Source: Ascidiella aspersa (taxonomy: Eukaryota). Taken from it: a stretch of DNA of 64,000 bases. Below are positions 52,291 through 64,000 of the stretch, piece after piece; the first letter of the stretch is position 1; each line of letters starts with the position of its first letter. A program made the position numbers and the translations under genes. The stretch is taken from positions 24,676,001-24,740,000 of the forward strand of contig OZ004609.1 in assembly GCA_963924565.1 (NCBI GenBank), given 5' to 3'. The notes under the pieces were generated by a model that was not told the origin of the DNA, made no database searches, and saw nothing but the letters and a program-made list of their open reading frames with translations.

Positions 52291-55200
52291 CTACAACTTA
52301 TCATCAGTCATCGAATTAAACCCGCCCGCGATCTCGTCGCTGCGTGACCGCCCGTAGCTGTTGCTGATCGTGGGTGGTCGTGGCTCGAGCGCCACCCTAC
52401 GGTCGTCGTGTCGCACTTCGCCTGGAACATTGCGGCGCAAGAAACTCGTGTGGGTGTGCACGTATCGGATTGACCTGTAAAGAAAAAGGCGATTGCCGTT
52501 GAACCGCCGAGCGATCATACCTTGGTCGGTGTACGTAACAAGAACGTTTTTTCATTAACCTTCGCAATCACAAGACTTCACTTAACCAGCAATAGGCGCT
52601 TTTGTTTTTTGCTGAACTGTGGAGCCAATGGAGCTCATATTTAGCCAAAATTTAGATTTGCCAATAAAACACGAACCTTTCTTTTTTCAATAAAGGACAG
52701 GTAATCGAAAAAGAAAGGATCAAGTGTAGCGTGTTATTTAAATCTAAATCAAAGTAATGTTGGGACCTTATGTGGTTACAACAAACGGCGAATTACTTTT
52801 GTCTGGCAAAATTCGCGCTTCGACCCCCGGAATGAAGAAATCTACTCTAGGAGTCAAATTTATCTCACGTTTAGTAGACTGTAGAAAGCAGTAAATGGGA
52901 TTAGTTTACGAAATATTTATATTCTGAACACTATGATTTGTTTCGCACAAAATAAATAAAAATACGAACATAACGCACCACTGGCGAAAGCTACCAGCCA
53001 ATGGTCCACAGGTGAAGGCCTTGCGAAAGTCGCGCCGAAAATCGGACGACACGAACGCGTAGATGACGGGGTTGACGCACGAGTTGGCGTAGCTGAGGCA
53101 GTGCGCCGACACTCGCAGGCAAAACGTGGCCCTCGTGAAGGGAAAAGTGCCGAACTTGAGCCAGAGCATGGCCACGTGATGCGGCAGCCAGTCGAGGGCG
53201 AAGACGATCACCTGGAGACAAAAAAGGCGAGTTGAATAAAAAAAAGGCGAGTTGAATCCAGGGCCGTATTTTCGGCCCGAATCACTTACAACATTGTGGT
53301 ACACCCAATATATGACTAACTCGAAAATATTAAGAGACTAAATGCAAAATAGCAACAAACCTTAACTATATAACATCTAGATAATTATTTTTCAAAAATA
53401 TTTGTAAATATTATTATCAATTTGCCATTTTTTGCCTTAAATCCGTTATCTTAAAAATGATTAGGGCAAAACAAATGTAGGCTAATGTAAATCCGACATC
53501 AATTGCTTTTATGGTGCACTCTTTTCCTGGATGCCCTATAAGAACGTGCTTATATTCTTCTTTCGTGTGTCAAACACGGATCAGCTCTGTTGACGAGAGC
53601 CATTTCAGAGTGTCATTGTCGAGGTCCCTGAGGCCTCGTTCCCCATGGGGTGGACGGTAGGTGGTACATTCCTCCACGATGTGATCCGCAGTTTGGTGTT
53701 GGGCGCCACATATGCAAGCTGGATTGTCGGTCAAGCCCCACTTCAGCATCGACGCTCCGAAACAGCCGACTCCAGTGCGGAGGCGGTTAAGATTAACCCA
53801 CTGTCGCCGTGGAAGGTCCAGGCCTGTTACTTCATAAGGGCTGTCTATGTAGCGATGTAATCTTGTTTGTGGTGCTGCTGACCACCTCTCCGTCCACCGG
53901 TTCTTTACCCAGGTGTCCTTGGACATGCCATCTCTGACGACCTGTAGCATCGTCTTTGCCTGGGCAGCAAAGGAGTGCCTCGATTTTAGGCGTTGATGGC
54001 AAGTCTTATTAGTGAGAACTCTGTGCAGTAGATGTTGTTCGTTGCAGAGCGCTTTTCTACAGAGGGCTAGGGTCGCTGCCTCTCGGCGGATGTCAGGCGG
54101 TGCTATGCCGGCCAGCACGGGCAGCTGCTCGGTTGGCGTGGCACGTAGGCAGCCAGATATGACACGCAACGCACTATTAAGGGTAGTGTCCACCTTCTTA
54201 GCGTGGCTACTTCGGCACCACACAGGGGCACAGTACTCAGCAGCGGATAGCACCAGTGCCTGGACAGATATACGCAGCACCTTAGTTGAGCCTCCCCACG
54301 CAGTACCGGCCAGACGGCGTATAAGCGCAATGCGAGCGGTTGCCTTCGCCCTGACGCTGTCGACGTGATGCTTGAACGTCAGCGTTCTGTCAAGCTTGAC
54401 CCCGAGGTATGTGGGGGTAGCATTATGCTGCAACAACGTGTTGTTGACTCGGATGTTTGTAGTACGCTTGGCTTCCCTGTTATTTAGGTGGAACATTGTG
54501 GCCATAGTTTTCCCCATGCTTAATTTTAGTCTCCAGTTCTTGAAGTAGGACGACAGGATCCCCATGTCTGCGGTTAGACCTTCTTCGGCTTCGCCCCATG
54601 TTGGCTTGCTGAATAGAATTGCAAGATCATCTGCATAGCCATATTTCTTCGACTGGGTGGCGGGTAAGTCGTGAATATATATGTTAAATAACATAGGAGC
54701 AAGGACGGAACCTTGTGGTACGCCATTCCTCAGCTTTCGAGTCCTACTGCATTGACCGTTAATTGTGTGGAGCTGAAAGCTACGGTTACTCAGCATGTTT
54801 AAGATGAAGTTGACCATATGCATATCTGGGATCATCTTCAGGAGCTTTAGGTGAAGACCACGCAACCAAACGGTGTCATACGCAGCCGTGAGGTCAATGA
54901 ACACGGCTCCGACTTTTTCACCAGCCTCAAACCCATTCTCTATATCTTGGCACAGTAGGGTAACCTGATCTGTGGTAGATCTACCACTGCGGAAACCCGC
55001 TTGCTCCTTGGGCAATTGTGGATCGATAATAGGATTTAGGCGCGTGTGGAGAAGTCGCTCCAACATCTTGTAAGGAACACACAATAGCGATATAGGGCGA
55101 TAACTCTTCGGGTCGCCTTTTGGTTTGTTTGGCTTCGGTAAAGCTATTACCTTCGCCCGACGCCAGATCTTGGGTAACCTGCCAGTTCGAAGACAGGTTG

Positions 55201-58200
55201 AGAAGAAAGAGGTTAGCCATGAGGACATTTTCCTTCCTTGATGTTTAATAAACTCTGGATGAATTCCATCGATGCCTGGTGATCTGCCCACTTTAAGTTG
55301 TTTGGTGGCTTCCGCAAGTTCTTGGTCGGTGAAGTCGATTGAAAGGTTGGAGTTACAGGTGGGGGACGCACGAATTTCTTTGGTCTTGGCATTAATTCTT
55401 CTGCTGAAGGACCTGTCTACATTAGGGCAACGGTTGTTGCTGAGAAGTTGGGCGGCAATCGCATTGGCCGTGATGGGGCATTTACTTGGTTTTGCCGACC
55501 TTCCAGTAAGCCTGTTGACTGTTTGCCAGGCTCTACGACTGGAATGAGTAAAGTCTATTGACTTCACTGTTTCATTCCATCTCTCCCTTCGTTGTTCGTT
55601 TAGTCTGCGGATGAGATCATCGGCAGCCCTTTCTCGATCATGGATGGATTCCGCCTCGTTTTGTGTGCGAAGTAATTGCTCGCATTCTTCGTCCCAGCAA
55701 GGAACGTAGCTCCTTCGAAAGCCGCGGGGAATGTTATTCTTCGCAGCAGAGGTTATAGCCTTGCAGAAGGTGCTATAGGCGCAGTTGATGTTGACTGAGT
55801 TCGGGGACGGCAAGCCAACAGCTATCGCATCGAGTTGTTGACTGAATCTTTTCCAGTTGGCTTTGCGGAAATTCCAACGCCTCACGGGATTCCCTTCAAT
55901 AGGCTGAACTAACGCTGGGGTTAGAATCAGCGATGGACGATGGTGAGAATGGGGGAATCTATCCAGAACGCGCCTCTCCGGCATTGGCTCACCGGCGCAG
56001 CTTTTAAAAAAGGCCAGGTCGGGATTGGTGTCGGTGTTCCAGCGCGCGGAGTGGAATGTCGGCTGCTCTTTCGGATCGAAAAGTAGAGTGGCGTCAATGG
56101 ATGAAGCCCATTCGATAAGGGTGTCGCCGTCTGCATTGCTGACGCTATAGCCCCAGTCAGTGTGATGGCAGTTGAAGTCGCCGACGTAAAGAGCTGGTGC
56201 GGTGACATCTGGAAGTGAGTCGAGATACAGTCTGCTGGGTGGTGGCTTGTAGATGTTGACGATGGTAGTGTCTTGTACCTTGGTTGTCAGCCACTCCACA
56301 GTTGTATTGTCGTCAGACTGCGCCATCGCTGACCAAGGTATATCATTCCTGATAAAGGTTGCGATGCCATGGTGCTTGTCCAGTGTGAATCCGGCCAGGT
56401 TGAAACCCGGTATCTTCAGGACGCTAGAGTTGGTAGCATGCGTTTCCTGCAGGGAAATTATCGCAACTTTGTTGTTGTTGGCGATATGTGTAATGACGCT
56501 GAGTTTGGCGGTTGTAAGGCCCTCAACATTTAGCTGTAGCAGCGCCAAGTCTTGGCTTTCGACGAACGTTGTTTTTGCCGCCTGGCCTAAAAAGGCCACA
56601 TGCTTCCTTGGACTTGACGCCGGGTCATGATTCATTTGACGTGTTTGACGGTTTAAAGACATTGGTTTCGCTTATGTTAGCTACTTATAGGGGATGCCAC
56701 GTAAAGGCTGTCTTTATACCCCCCATATTGCCTAATGGTTAATCCAGCCCTGGCTATTCCTAATCGCGACTTTGTTTTTAGCAGATACCAGCCCTTGTTT
56801 TGTCAATATTACTTATGTTTTCGAAAGATGGCAAACTGAAAAATTAAATTTTTTTTAAATTTTTTTGAACAAAAATAAAATGTGAAAAGGTTACAAAATT
56901 TAGTGTATTTCTTCAAAACTAAAACTATGCTAAGAATACATACATGATAAATAACCTTTCACAACTATAAAAAGCTAATATCTGCCAAGAAACTTTTTAC
57001 CTCATCAAGAATGTATTAGACACTTACAAAGTAACTTAGTTTAGATAAGAATATATTATCTTATCTAAAGTAAGTTGCTATCGTGATTACAAGGTTATAT
57101 TATATTCGCGTTTTACTTAAGTTCAAACCAGTTCGTAAGACAATAAATATTTCAAAAGCACTTCCCACTATATATAGTAGCATTTATGGTATCCCAGGTA
57201 ATTTATCGGTTTCAGAGAAGTTTATATCAGTAAATTAAAATTTGAATTACACTGGAAAATAAGTGAAGCCACGTTTAATGTTTAACTGTTTACAAGAAAA
57301 TATCTAAAAAATTTTTTTCTTAACACAAATGTATAAACTCGCATCATAATATATGACCGAAGTCAAACTATTTTTAAAAGATTTTGGCGAGTAAAAAGAA
57401 ATATCCAACTTCGAACTACAATAAATTATAGGGTTGAATATTGATTTGATTCATCGCCGAGGCTGCGTAACTCTGTTCCTTAGGATACAAATTAAGTGTT
57501 AGAGATTTTCTTTTGGAAAAGCATCTGTCGTAGATTGGAAACCGACTTTCGTGCTGCTGTCACTATAAATTAAATTCCTGGGTTCAACGGCATGTCCCAA
57601 GATAAAACGTTTAGATCAGCCCTTGTTAACCTGGGGTAAACTTTCCCCAAGGGGTAAACTTCCTTGGTTTAGATTTAGAGGGTAAATACAAGAATAGGTA
57701 TTCAAGCTCTGAATATTCTGTTTCACGTTTCTTCAACTAACCTATGGTGCGAAGCGGCTTCTGTGCATTGCCTAGTATAAAATCTCAAGCACGAAACCGA
57801 CTTGAATCTGATATTCGTTGTGCATTACCTATACTAGGCCTACTTTACCAGACATTGAACAACTCGTTGCCAAAAAGCAAGGGCAGCTGTCGGACTGAAT
57901 ATAACTGATGTAATTTGTTACTTACGTTTTTTTTATTAAATGAACACCACTTAAATTGGGGATAAATCTGATATTTATCTTTGTTAAAAAGGTTAAAACA
58001 TACAAAAAAGGTTAAGAACCCCTGGTTTAGATAAAGGAAGGCAAGCGAAGACGCTTTGCATTGGCGACCGTTACTCACAAGGGTGACGACGATCTTGGTT
58101 ACACGCCGTTTCGTCTTCTTGGTTGCTAAAGACCTCCGACGAGCGGACCTTTGCGCACTCTTGCACATGACGTTGAGCACTTGCAGGTAGCAGATCACGA

Positions 58201-61200
58201 TTACGGTGAGCGGCGCAAGGTAGCCCATCACGAAGATCACGAGGTGATACCAGCCGAACCACTTTGTCACGCAAAGCATCTTGCCCTCGTACTCCAGCTG
58301 TGAAAATACTTGTATCAATATCCACTGTTGAGGCTTTAAATGGCTTGCAACACCCATATGTAAAACTACATATCGATCAATAAAGCCCTATAAAGTAATA
58401 CGCAACCCCGGAAACTAAAAGAACACGGATTGTCACAAAGCCAAATTTAAAAGCCTTAAATTAAGTTTTTTAAGATGTTTAAACATTAAAAACCTGGTAG
58501 TAGAAATTTTGCCAAACGCGAACATTTAAATTATATCTGTCACAAAGATAGGCCGAATTGTTTCAAGGGTCAAGGCGTTAACGTTGTGGTACTACGGTAA
58601 AACTTTAATCGAATAAGTTTAGGCAGAAACCCTTTTTCAATAATGTGGAATTTAATTGGTGGTTTTAAACGACGTTTCTTTGCGGTGGCCTTTTTTAATA
58701 TAAAAACTTAAATTGTTAAATCATTTGTCTTTTTGTCTAATTGTATATGATTGTAATATGGTTTAGGTCTAATACACCAAAATTGGGAAGGTTGCGTAAT
58801 TTTTTTTAAAACTGAACAGGAGTCGCGCCAACAAAAATGTTGGGAACCACTGGTTTACCGTAATTGATTTATAGAAACACGTAAACGGAACTAAAATCAA
58901 TATAATTATTCTTAGAGCACACGTCATTACTTTAATTGCGATCCAGCTGTGGCACTTTACGTGCAAAATATTTTTGATTTTCCGACACGGCACTAATGAG
59001 CCCTTAGGTGCTGATTCGTTACGTTGGTCCCGATGGTAATAAACAAAATGAACGTTTCGTTTTGTGGGCGATATTATCGTTGTCGCTTGTACTTGACATG
59101 AATCCATAATGAGGGTGCAAGGCTGCTGGTAAAATATTATGCGACGCAGGACCATTCATTTTTTATGCATGAGCCGTAGCTTACATGCCAAACTGTAATG
59201 GGACTATTTGTAAATTTGAAAGTGCATATCGAGCTTACCACCCCAATGTCGGTATTATGTTGTCGCCACTAAGTAGGCTATAGTTTTTTATTAACGGACT
59301 GGCAGACAGTGTTGTAGGCCAGTGCTTAAACTTTTTTAGTTTCGTTCACCCTTAGCATCTATCTCCAGATTTCATTCACCCTTGTCTCATGATATGATAA
59401 AACTATCTCGTTTATATATAACAGCACAAAATAACTTAGGTTGCGATTTTTGTTAAGATCGACTCAAGCTAAGTTTTACCATTGCAAATCTACAATTTCT
59501 CGAGCCCAGAAATATAAAGCAACAAACGCACAAAACAAAGTCACCAAATTGTTGTACTTATACTGGGGCTACCATATTTTTAGCGCCCAAAAAGAGGACA
59601 TTTTTTGCCTGCAAGTAAAACGATAGTATGAATTGTTACGTTCGACAAATACGTGCCATATTCACACCTTTTTTCAGCAGCGGCACCCTTTGTAATTTTC
59701 CTATGACTTGCACCCCTACGAAAAACAATTCGAAATTTTTAATTAATAATCACTAAGACAACATGAAAATAGTGAAGTTTGTTGTTGGTCGGGCGAAGCG
59801 CGAAAAAAATTGGATTTGATTGGTTGAATTGGCGCTAAACTGTAAAATTAGGAGGCTTTTCGCAAAACATTTCGTCCCCCTGTTGCTAGCCTGTTATCCA
59901 ATTATATAAAATGTGGATAAAAAATAGTTCAAACGGTGGATGACTTTTATCGTTTATCTATAAGTTAGAAACATTATAGGGTTGTACCTTCGATGATATG
60001 AAAACATGAAATGGCACTCAAAGAGACGTTGTGCTCAACAAAGTAAACAAAATTAGATAACAGAAGATTCGCAAATTTTTTTTGGCAGTTTTAATGTTAA
60101 AGTTGGCAAAAACAGAGTTTGTACAGTGCTGTAGGAGTGTACAACCAAAACGAAAACGATACCATTAGAATCATTGCAAAAAAAAATATTAACTTAGAGC
60201 TCGCCTCCCCCCCCCCCCTACGAATTGCTTGGAGCCCCCCTAGAAACCCTTTTCAAACCAGCAATTTAGCATCTTTCATGGCTTAAATACAACCTCTCGC
60301 CTAAAAGTCTTGTTAAAAGTATAAGCAACTAACTCGAAATGGGAAAAAGAGGACATTTGGACATTTTTGAGCGTCCTCGGAGGACTATTCAGTTTTCTTT
60401 AGAAAAGGGGACAACTCCTCCTAAAAGAGGACATATTATGGTAGGCCCAACTTCTAAACTTAGTGCAAACCAACTTAACTATTACAATAAGCAAAAAAAC
60501 ACCAAAAAACAACAGTTCAGCAGTCGATTTACTTCAGAAAGTTGTTTACTAGTGACTATAGGATGCTCCTGAACTTTCGTTCACCCTTATTCACCCATTT
60601 TGGTTGGTTCACCCCTGCAAAAATGTTATTCACCCTGAGGTGAACCATTCACCACTTTAAGAAACACTGTTGTAGGCTGAAAATAAGTAAATTGCATAAA
60701 ATTTTAGTCGCACACATAAAGTAATGATACTTTCATGTTTCCAACATTTATGGTGCTTTTAGTATATTTTCGTATTTGCAAAAATTGTGTGGGTATTAAT
60801 ATACAAACTGATATTTATGGTTGTAGAAAAACCATGCGGTATATATGATTTTTTTATTAACCATTGCTTCATGGAATAGCCCATTTAGAAATAATAATTT
60901 TTCTGTTGAAATGATATAGTAGTTTACAATTTACTTAGTAGTACAATCGAGTTTAATGCTCCTTCGAAATCCACGTTAAACATTTTTATATACTTTCCGC
61001 TCTGACTATAGTGTTTTGCCAGGTTGCAATGCATCATTGAAATAAAGGTAATTTGGGAAAGACTGGACAAAATATAATTAAACCCAATGGGTTCACAAGA
61101 GATATCACAACCAACAACCGACTGATTTACCCCGGTTTTTGACATGAGAGAAGGCAAACCCAGCGCGAACGCGATAATCCAGATTGCGATCATTCCCTTG

Positions 61201-64000
61201 GAAGCGTTTCGTTTGGTTCTCCACTGCTTTGCGGAAGTCGCGTACACAACAGCAAGGAATCTGGTCGTGTAACAAAAATACTATTTAAGGGTTAAATATA
61301 AGAAAGCCTATAGATAAAGGAAACTATAGGCATATCACGTCACAATTTAGATATCAATGCAGACCAAGCCTCAATACACCTTTTTTAGGCCATCTGACAA
61401 CCTTGAACCCAAGATTTTAGTGGTATTGAGTCAATATGTGTATCGGGGATTGACAAAAATGTTAAAATGGTGAACAGTTTTAAAGTCGTTAATAAGGATT
61501 ACCGAATGTTTCAATACACAGGAACCGCTCCACAAATATTTATTTAATGGAAAGTACGATAAAGTAAAATTGTCTTTGACTACAAACAAGGTCAATCTGG
61601 TGTTTGTACCCGAAAATGCTGCTCAATCTTTCCTATCGATGTTTTGAGATGCGTCTGGTAAATGTGTAAGGAGGTCAAATGCGCTCTGGCATTTCCGCGG
61701 CCTTTATTTTTCTTGAAATGTTTCCGGTATTTGTATCGACCAAGATCTCGTCAAGCGACGCGGCAAAATTGAAGAAGATCGATAGCTTTCGCGACGCAAG
61801 TCTTGCTTCAGTAGCCGAGGCGCGGGCGGCGATTTGACAAAGCCTAGTCCCGCCGAAAAAGCGACCAGAACGCGAGGTTGCGCTAGTTTTGTTGCGTACT
61901 AACTAACGGGCGAGTTTACAACTTCATGCGCATACACTCTATTGGACTTTGGCTGGAATTGCGACCATATCGAATGGCATTGACGAATCCGACATCAATT
62001 ATTCAGCGCCCGACGCCGGCCGGGACGCTTGCACCGTTTTGGGCCAAAAGCCGTGTGCATGATGTGGCTGACATCGGGGCCCGGACATACACAAATATCT
62101 CTTGCGCCTTTGCCAAGACACTCTTTCCAGCGCCCTAAGAATGATCAGTTCTGGCCCGGACCGTTGGAACCCTGAGTTATGTGGAAGCCTTGTAATTTCT
62201 CTCCGAAACCGTCAGCTGCGGTACAACGAGGTAAAATCGACTGTCGAAAGTTTGGCCGCGAACTTGCGCATAACACAACCACTTTTTTAAAAAAAAACAA
62301 GATCCGATTTGGACACATAGCTCTATGCTCTGCTTTTCGAAATGCCAGAAAAATCTTTCCTCAGGGGAAATACTTCATATTATATTAAATGCCAAGCTGC
62401 CTCAGCCTATACTTAGCCTAATCGACTGATTCATATTATATCGATCACTGAATTTAAGATTTGGAAAGATGACAAAATCGATTGATTAAGATCATCATGC
62501 ACAGTCAAAGAAAACTGTCAAAACCACATTGCCCGAAACCGCAAAACAAGCACTTAAACTAGGCTAAACGACGAGCTTAGCGTAAAAATCGATAACAGAT
62601 CCGCACATATGAACTAAAAAACAAGCGCAGAGATTTGTCATAAAACCCATATGCCATTTTTAAGTTAATATATATTAGAAGAATATTATTGCAAGCATCA
62701 GGATCAAAGTGTTTTTAAAAACGAAAAGCATATAAAATATTTTGACCAATTCTGCCAATCTACTGTTGCTCCTGTAATTATACAATGTAATTAATATGTC
62801 TTTTGTCAACATTTACATTTAAATATATTTTATCACTTGTCGATGGTTAAGTTACACAAAGAAGGTTCATGCGAAACAATGGATTAAAACAGGGGTCGGC
62901 AACCTACGGCCCGCGGGCCGGATCCGGCCCGCCGATGTAATTCGTCCGGCCCGCCGCCTTCTTGACAAATAAGACACGAGTCCGTTCCACAAACTTTTTG
63001 ACTATTTTAACTACGTAAGTGCGAAAATTTTTCGCGCTCCGCGCGACATCATTCTACGTCCGGTTTGTTTACGTTTTGATGTTGTCTTTTCACCTAGATC
63101 AGCGCTTCTTTGCCGTTGCGCCGTGGAAGGCAGCCAAGTGCGTCACGGAAAACGTATTCAAAATGTTGGACGTATATTTTTTTTATTTTTTTTATTTTCG
63201 GCAATGTAATAAAAACTTGCAAGAAATTTAAAAGAAATACCGGTATGCCAAAAAAATCGCGCTCGCTTCGCTCGCCAGGTGTGCCAACACTCAGCTAGAT
63301 TAACTTTAAACGTCAGCACGTTACCTAAAAGTAGTTTTATAACACTTTTCGTTAGTAGGATGGATGACGACGTGTCAACTCGATATTTATACCAAACAAA
63401 CGCTTCTTTTCGCTCTTTGCACCAACACTTTACAGCCTTCTTAAATGTTATTACGATCCGAGATCCGGCTGATTCACATTTCTAACATGAAAATAACACA
63501 ATTCTTAGTTATCATTTTGTGCGGCTCGCAGAGACCTTTCTGAGTTTGGTTTTGGCCCGCGACTAGAAAAAGGTTGCCGACCCCTGGATTAAAAGAACAA
63601 ACATCTGGCCGGCAGTGTTAATCCTTATGACGGCAATGGAGCAATAAAACAGCAAAGGGATTATAGTTCTGGGCTAAAATATATAGTTTTGGGCTAAAAT
63701 GTAAAGCTTCTTCTTACCTGTCGAAGGAAAGGGCCGCCAGGGTGTAGATGCTAGCCAGCATGGTGACCTCCTGGCAGACCTCGCAGAACACACACATGAA
63801 GCCACCGAAGGGCCAGCCGTCCATGCTGTACACCGGAGCTTGGAAGGGAACGCAGAAGACCAGGAAAAAGAGGTCGGACACGGCGAGGTTGAGAATGAAT
63901 CGGTCGGTGATCCGCAAGCCGCGCGGATGATTTCTCCTCGTGGTTACCATGGCAGCGATCACCAGGCAGTTGCCGCACATGCCAACAAGAAAGATGAGAC
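52291..64000 (-). CDS. Galanin-receptor-like class A GPCR, paralog 2 (N-terminus beyond the window)
   Basis: Minus-strand exons >64000-63718, 61260-61131, 58297-58079, 53211-52979, 52474-52291. The first three intron positions match paralog 1. Motifs WLPHH, SAHCLSYANSCVNPVIYAF and C-tail EPRPPTISNS (paralog 1: QPRPPTINSS). Confidence 0.88.
53570..56662 (-). CDS. APE endonuclease + reverse transcriptase + C-terminal CCHC motif (1030 aa), no RNase H recognised
   Basis: Endonuclease: LQLNVEGL, SLQETH, GDFNCH, PDLAF, SHHRP. RT: YRPISLL, QAGFR, DLTAAYDTV, GVPQGSVLAP, YADD, YLGV. C-terminal CICG...HIVEEC. Confidence 0.95.
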   Translation of the reverse strand: MSLNRQTRQMNHDPASSPRKHVAFLGQAAKTTFVESQDLALLQLNVEGLTTAKLSVITHIANNNKVAIISLQETHATNSSVLKIPGFNLAGFTLDKHHGIATFIRNDIPWSAMAQSDDNTTVEWLTTKVQDTTIVNIYKPPPSRLYLDSLPDVTAPALYVGDFNCHHTDWGYSVSNADGDTLIEWASSIDATLLFDPKEQPTFHSARWNTDTNPDLAFFKSCAGEPMPERRVLDRFPHSHHRPSLILTPALVQPIEGNPVRRWNFRKANWKRFSQQLDAIAVGLPSPNSVNINCAYSTFCKAITSAAKNNIPRGFRRSYVPCWDEECEQLLRTQNEAESIHDRERAADDLIRRLNEQRRERWNETVKSIDFTHSSRRAWQTVNRLTGRSAKPSKCPITANAIAAQLLSNNRCPNVDRSFSRRINAKTKEIRASPTCNSNLSIDFTDQELAEATKQLKVGRSPGIDGIHPEFIKHQGRKMSSWLTSFFSTCLRTGRLPKIWRRAKVIALPKPNKPKGDPKSYRPISLLCVPYKMLERLLHTRLNPIIDPQLPKEQAGFRSGRSTTDQVTLLCQDIENGFEAGEKVGAVFIDLTAAYDTVWLRGLHLKLLKMIPDMHMVNFILNMLSNRSFQLHTINGQCSRTRKLRNGVPQGSVLAPMLFNIYIHDLPATQSKKYGYADDLAILFSKPTWGEAEEGLTADMGILSSYFKNWRLKLSMGKTMATMFHLNNREAKRTTNIRVNNTLLQHNATPTYLGVKLDRTLTFKHHVDSVRAKATARIALIRRLAGTAWGGSTKVLRISVQALVLSAAEYCAPVWCRSSHAKKVDTTLNSALRVISGCLRATPTEQLPVLAGIAPPDIRREAATLALCRKALCNEQHLLHRVLTNKTCHQRLKSRHSFAAQAKTMLQVVRDGMSKDTWVKNRWTERWSAAPQTRLHRYIDSPYEVTGLDLPRRQWVNLNRLRTGVGCFGASMLKWGLTDNPACICGAQHQTADHIVEECTTYRPPHGERGLRDLDNDTLKWLSSTELIRV
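56654..56724 (-). ncRNA. HDV-like self-cleaving ribozyme at the LINE 5' end
   Basis: Minus strand GGGGGGT-A-TAAAGACA-GCC-TTTACGT-GGC-ATCCCCT-...-CCAA-TGTCTTTA. P1 GGGGGGT/ATCCCCT with a G1.U wobble; P2 TAAAGACA/TGTCTTTA; P3 GCC/GGC with a 7-nt L3; J4/2 CCAA. Confidence 0.75.
57617..58024. mobile_element. hAT-type MITE
   Basis: Right end GGTTAAGAACCCCTG, degenerate left end CAGCCCTTGTTAACC; TSD GTTTAGAT on both sides. Confidence 0.75.
59320..60669. mobile_element. Long non-autonomous hAT element whose ends match the 34996-35237 MITE
   Basis: Perfect TSD TTGTAGGC. 59320-59435 and 60575-60669 resemble the reverse complements of the two halves of the 34996 element. Confidence 0.75.
62890..63586. 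mobile_element. hAT (Charlie/Buster-like) non-autonomous element
   Basis: Perfect 15-bp TIR CAGGGGTCGGCAACC/GGTTGCCGACCCCTG; TSD GATTAAAA; subterminal GGCCCG repeats. Confidence 0.9.

Follow-up and report, generated by a model that had tools for sequence, protein, structure and literature searches.

HDV-like ribozymes are published for the 5' ends of R2, RTE and L1Tc/ingi retrotransposons, as the initial annotation of the present locus stated. They are described as liberating the elements from co-transcripts, with a proposed support of translation initiation (PMC6765202). The ribozyme of the trypanosomatid L1Tc is active, 77 nt long and HDV-like, with a P1.1 of one pair where one or two are allowed (PMC3185411). 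R2 and RTE/Baggins, which are other LINE clades, carry ribozymes associated with 5' processing from a host co-transcript and proposed cap-independent translation; R2 is site-specific and often has long inserts in J1/2 (PMC3774820, PMC6765202). Vingi elements, such as Vingi-1_Acar, are described as compact, with bipartite derivatives and a single ORF that combines an AP endonuclease (APE) with a reverse transcriptase (RT) and has no RNase H (PMC13708176, PMC5786205).

The element studied here is a Vingi-like LINE on the minus strand, at positions 56724-53557 of the window, i.e. the whole 64-kb stretch of Ascidiella aspersa contig OZ004609.1 that was analysed. We hold it to be very probable that its first 71 bases form a conserved HDV/CPEB3-type fold, which likely cuts the element RNA from the host transcript, and that this fold contains the first AUG and would have to open for it to be read. 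As with L1TcRz/Pr77, a dispersed APE-type LINE of the ingi lineage begins at base +1 with a short HDV-like ribozyme, and a one-pair P1.1, sensitivity to upstream bases and two-ended non-autonomous derivatives are further points in common; the present element differs from L1Tc, as the latter is described, in its animal host, absence of RNase H, length of 3.2 kb, GAA tail and an ORF start inside the ribozyme (PMC3185411, PMC4035085, PMC3383444). Its best Rfam match is the mammalian CPEB3 ribozyme (RF00622), likewise intronic and in sense orientation, from which it departs by a score below gathering, a smaller P4, a U-A instead of C-G in the P1.1 of its own family (family A) and its place within a mobile, polymorphic element. 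Self-cutting 5' heads are a known kind of device; less familiar is that ribozyme and start codon overlap, and do so repeatedly. Searching the literature by title and abstract, we found no report of a Vingi ribozyme or of an AUG within such a ribozyme, though Ruminski 2011, Kojima 2011, Eickbush 2010 and Jimenez 2015 may describe either. With this locus the range of 5' HDV-like ribozymes comes to include a Vingi-like LINE of an animal; the covariation is unusually clean and comprises a natural U-A/C-G swap in P1.1.

The LINE is 3.17 kb long. Its single ORF (53570..56662, minus strand) encodes 1030 aa, with matches to Pfam RVT_1 and two endonuclease families and a C-terminal CCHC-type motif. Pfam gives no RNase H match in this ORF at an E-value of 0.001, nor at 0.01 in one ORF of family B, a sister family of the same genome whose protein is 51% identical. 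A GAA-type tail (53557..53564, minus) forms the 3' end. This architecture (single ORF, APE and RT, no RNase H) agrees with how PMC13708176 describes Vingi, and the clade label used here is one of architecture; neither Vingi nor Ingi is the label of any of 120 homologues among the matches listed. Copies of the LINE head are dispersed over the genome. Family A is young: two full-length copies are 99.4-99.5% identical to the window copy, and four copies, the window copy included, have open frames of at least 1032 codons. We also noted short two-ended derivatives, RIME/NARTc-like, that join ~92-117 nt of the head to the 3' end (L018:1501-1650, at G000:C3:4809691, and contigs in runs X11 and X14). 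Separately, contigs of run X3, which is labelled as another organism (B), are ~99% identical to the element over window positions 53606-56571 and leave the GPCR exons uncovered; they may reflect horizontal transfer, a close relative or contamination.

The limits of the element are given by an empty allele. In run X1, one contig passes directly from 53551 to 56725, leaving out 3173 bases and with 5 letters shared, and L090, an empty copy of the host repeat, has the 5-bp target site once. The target-site duplication (TSD) is therefore 5 bp, with copies at 56725..56729 (5') and 53552..53556 (3') on the minus strand, and G56724 is element base +1. The TSDs of other copies agree: among nine 5'/3' pairs tested, six have a clean TSD of 5 to 12 bp abutting G1 (L003 and L004, counted among them, are one duplicated insertion), two are imperfect and one lacks a detectable tail. 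Furthermore, of the 21 other genomic matches to the head, 11 have their first base at query position 6 or 7, where position 7 is G1. Since the X1 contig carries the empty allele, the insertion is polymorphic, which offers a natural comparison of filled and empty alleles for the effects of an intronic ribozyme. The insertion sits inside a small host repeat, within an intron of a GPCR gene.

The ribozyme fold spans 71 nt (56654..56724, minus), numbered from G1 = 56724, with the predicted cut immediately 5' of G56724. It is a nested double pseudoknot of the HDV/CPEB3 type, in which P1, P2 and P3 follow the HDV order. P1 has seven pairs (1-7/30-36; 56718..56724 with 56695-56689), the first of them a G.U, with another G.U at 6/31; the initial annotation had put this helix at the TSD boundary, and the fold reading, the X1 contig and L090 all confirm it. 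Beyond J1/2 (positions 8-9), P2 is made of seven Watson-Crick pairs (10-16/64-70; 56709..56715 with 56661-56655). It had been described as eight perfect pairs, of which the eighth, U9-A71 (U56716-A56654), is possible in the window copy; several older copies have C9, so it is safer to read P2 as 7 bp and J1/2 as 2 nt. P3 (17-19/27-29; 56708-56706 with 56698-56696) is closed by the 7-nt loop L3 (20-26; 56705-56699), the whole hairpin covering 56696..56708, and L3 equals the Rfam CPEB3 consensus loop except for one base.

P1.1 (56688..56703) is one pair, U22-A37 (U56703-A56688), adjoining U21.U38, and P4 (56670..56681) is a hairpin of three pairs (44-46/53-55) with a 6-nt loop and pair probabilities of about 0.9. 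Both had been called weak or atypical, and both are indeed small; P1.1, however, is of the single-pair CPEB3/L1Tc type and has changed in a compensatory manner. In HDV-like ribozymes, the J4/2 that precedes P2 has its catalytic C within a C-N-R-A motif. The CCAA of J4/2 (positions 60-63; 56662..56665) fits this motif, stands where the annotation had placed it, downstream of P3 and L3, and has counterparts (CGAA, CUAA or CCAA) in the same register before P2 in the sister families. By analogy with known HDV-like ribozymes, C56665 is the predicted catalytic cytosine. The Rfam CPEB3 alignment takes instead the CGAA at positions 55-58 as J4/2; we rejected this choice, since the C of that CGAA closes P4, and in the sister families J4/2 stands immediately before P2.

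A strict HDV descriptor, composed after the site was seen, finds this site alone when both strands of the window are searched, whereas 40 dinucleotide-shuffled windows yield no site. A search with HDV-like models, which the annotation had suggested, did return matches, at 22.1 bits for the CPEB3 ribozyme (E 0.007) and 19.2 bits for HDV-F-prausnitzii (E 1.3), both below their gathering thresholds of 35 and 44. We regard the fold as one that would work like the CPEB3 ribozyme, and do not file it as a member of RF00622. ViennaRNA, used without pseudoknot folding, gives P1+P3+P4 or P2+P3+P4 depending on the flank, and its energies are no test of the fold. At position 39 the window copy has the minority base, the other base being present in 79 of 101 DNA reads. 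Where runs X4, X7 and X11 show a variant head, the differences affect position 39 or the loop of P4 and spare the stems. In RNA run X16 (about 6% read, 182 reads) the depth over 56580-56763 is 0.5, with no pile-up of read starts, and is too shallow to define 5' ends.

Sister families allow the pairing to be followed over larger distances. Families B and C of the same genome and F and G from metagenome contigs were found by protein search; D and E were added by a core pattern and not by protein homology. This pattern gives 73 overlapping matches in the genome and none in its reversed control. Across seven families, 98.4% of 124 stem cells are paired, and two-sided changes are seen at 12 of 18 pairs. 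None of 500 shuffles attains this, and slid controls are 43-54% paired. With D and E left out, the five protein-found families give 98.8% of 86 cells, again two-sided changes at 12 of 18 pairs, and 0 of 500 shuffles. These figures describe five to seven families with one copy each, picked as the least decayed, and a shuffle control that ignores relatedness. MAFFT misaligns P4 and J4/2; because of this, gaps removed some cells of two P2 pairs, and P4 did not enter the count. Of the metagenome loci, 22 in number, 16 were scanned for the ribozyme and four have a core-type match (L159, L160, L177, L178); two spurious matches were ignored, and the decayed folds of L163, L167-L169, L175 and L180 were read by eye.

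The compensatory changes that the annotation had asked for in P1 and P2 are present. In P1, all cells are paired in the seven families and four of the seven pairs change on both sides; in P2, all seven pairs do so in the five protein-found families. Thus pairing, and not sequence, is what the families have in common in these two helices. At the cut site of HDV-like ribozymes, a 7-bp P1 begins with G in a G.U or purine-pyrimidine pair; here the first pair of P1 is G.U in six families and G-C in the seventh. P1.1 is U-A in family A and C-G in the six others; on this comparison the swap is a compensatory change, and as such it points to selection. The L3 loop of the CPEB3 consensus and the GU after P1 also occur in families B, C, D, E and G. 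Taken with the boundary, the covariation bears out the claim of an HDV-like fold at the exact 5' end of the LINE, cleavage being predicted.

Three arrangements outside the main series are of note. In a metagenome copy (L160:1310-1425), the full ribozyme head is immediately preceded by a partial tandem duplicate of itself. Family D is a multi-copy, minimal HDV-like fold of ~58 nt, without a P4 helix and with a shared 7-base motif upstream (G000:C1:814617, C4:21528875, C5:15476420 and others, L111, L114, L144-L153); it spans at least three non-coding, AT-rich repeat subfamilies with only the ribozyme in common, and no LINE protein match was found in it. Family E (L113, at G000:C1:5174240, minus) consists of one complete HDV-like fold; its P4 3' strand contains an AUG, but no LINE ORF follows.

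The first in-frame ATG of the ORF (56660..56662, minus) has as its A the last base of J4/2 (56662), and its T and G open the P2 3' strand. This overlap, noticed in the initial annotation, proves to be real and recurrent. Four codons upstream of the ATG there is a stop in the same frame. Of 15 family A copies examined, 14 retain the ATG, a conservation that the ribozyme structure would also force. A second in-frame AUG, at codon 10, occurs in young copies of family A and in family F. Codon 10 is not ATG in L007, L009, L010, L013 or the high-depth contig of run X4, and hence the embedded ATG is the only one before the endonuclease there. In four of the five assessable families (A, C, F and G) the ORF starts inside the ribozyme: family F (L159) has its ATG in the same register as the window copy, and families C (L098) and G (L169, L175) have it in the P4 3' strand, reading through J4/2 and P2. 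In family B the ORF begins 14 nt beyond P2, which shows that the clade can do without an embedded AUG. Of 19 loci at which the AUG position was checked, six have a ribozyme-internal AUG that leads into the ORF and two (family B) a downstream one; L163 gave no output, and the rest are broken or without ORF. An AUG in L3 of L109 was set aside as decay.

In most family A copies a three-codon upstream frame runs from position 37, and it is abolished by base 39 of the window copy. Over window positions 56380-56760, run X4 (organism C) contains another related head, whose J4/2 reads CUAA and precedes an AUG in the same register. An N-terminal MS is present in 8 of 28 close homologues, compared with 10% after internal Met, a weak and non-independent signal that was not used as evidence. 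The AUG at 56662 may be the one used, and the fold would repress it. We further put forward, with considerable reserve, that the Vingi-type ribozyme might be a dual-coding switch, whose catalytic strand and P2 or P4 double as first codons. Each RNA would then be in one of two states, a folded one that is cut, end-protected and template-ready, or an opened one that is translated. If true, protein synthesis would be tied to prior self-cleavage and limited by it.

The proposed course of events would be as follows. The fold starts at the very first base of the element and is kept across families by compensatory changes. During read-through transcription, C56665 would cut with Mg2+ on the 5' side of G56724, as expected from L1Tc, R2 and CPEB3, leaving an uncapped RNA with a 5'-OH whose end is tucked into P1; this cut would fix the 5' end common to full-length new copies. 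J4/2 and the P2 3' strand overlap the start of the reading frame, and the cleaved RNA may be translated cap-free from the embedded AUG once P2 opens, the codon-10 AUG being an alternative in young copies. With a 71-nt leader that is both ribozyme and start site, the start of translation on an uncapped retrotransposon RNA becomes testable by a few point changes. The window copy itself would be a recent passenger of the GPCR intron, probably cut more slowly than in the best context of the family and with little effect on the host.

How fast the window copy cuts is where the main reservation lies. Its U-A P1.1 is weaker than the C-G of the six other families; J1/2 is short, and would be 1 nt if U9-A71 forms, a spacer reported to allow little self-scission in the Agam-2-1 ribozyme (PMC4908430); and its native flank is able to extend P1 by three pairs over the P1.1 bases, an extension that slows the L1Tc and R2 ribozymes (PMC3185411). 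For these reasons fast cutting in the window copy is doubtful. The minority base at position 39 adds to a possibility of modest but appreciable weight, namely that a real, inherited ribozyme has become slow or dead in family A or in the window copy, which would then be an inert passenger. Against this, the family is young with its precise 5' end kept, and the P1.1 change is compensatory, as selection would have it. Alternatively, an internal promoter overlapping the fold could be the chief source of the precise 5' end, with cleavage secondary: the first 77 nt of L1Tc are promoter and ribozyme together (PMC3383444), and the copies are dispersed over the genome. We find this quite improbable, as shared P1/P2 pairing with unshared sequence fits selection on RNA structure. 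That a G-rich 5' end should show these pairings by chance, as the sub-threshold Rfam scores might suggest, is next to impossible: the shuffled windows are devoid of sites, and the compensatory changes in P1, P2, P3 and P1.1 refute it.

Cleavage, if it occurs, also concerns the host gene. The element lies in sense orientation in an intron (53212..58078, minus, from splice signals read in the sequence) of a rhodopsin-family GPCR gene, whose flanking exons at 58297-58079 and 53211-about 52990 match 7tm_1. Splicing is blocked when an intronic ribozyme is fast, and modulation of the host mRNA is described for the Cpeb3 ribozyme of the mouse (PMC10919898); in the same way, the ribozyme might sever the GPCR pre-mRNA before splicing and lower the expression of the inserted allele. 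We judge this unlikely, for the next exon is close (G1 is just 3512 nt from the 3' splice site), the flank is unfavourable through its extension of P1, and the insertion is polymorphic and not fixed. The suggestion in the initial annotation that the host transcript would be severed accordingly found no support, and a small effect is expected. A liberated element RNA with little consequence for the host stays our preferred reading.

The GPCR gene, peptide-receptor-like as judged by eye, extends over window positions 52990-64000 (minus) with at least four exons and runs off the window end; run X16 (the same 182 reads) has no reads on its exons. In the same intron, at 57014-57092, lies a near-perfect AT-rich inverted repeat with arms of about 30 bp. 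An Rfam match to mir-8536 at this position was dismissed as an unrelated AT-rich hairpin, and the repeat is probably a MITE-like remnant.
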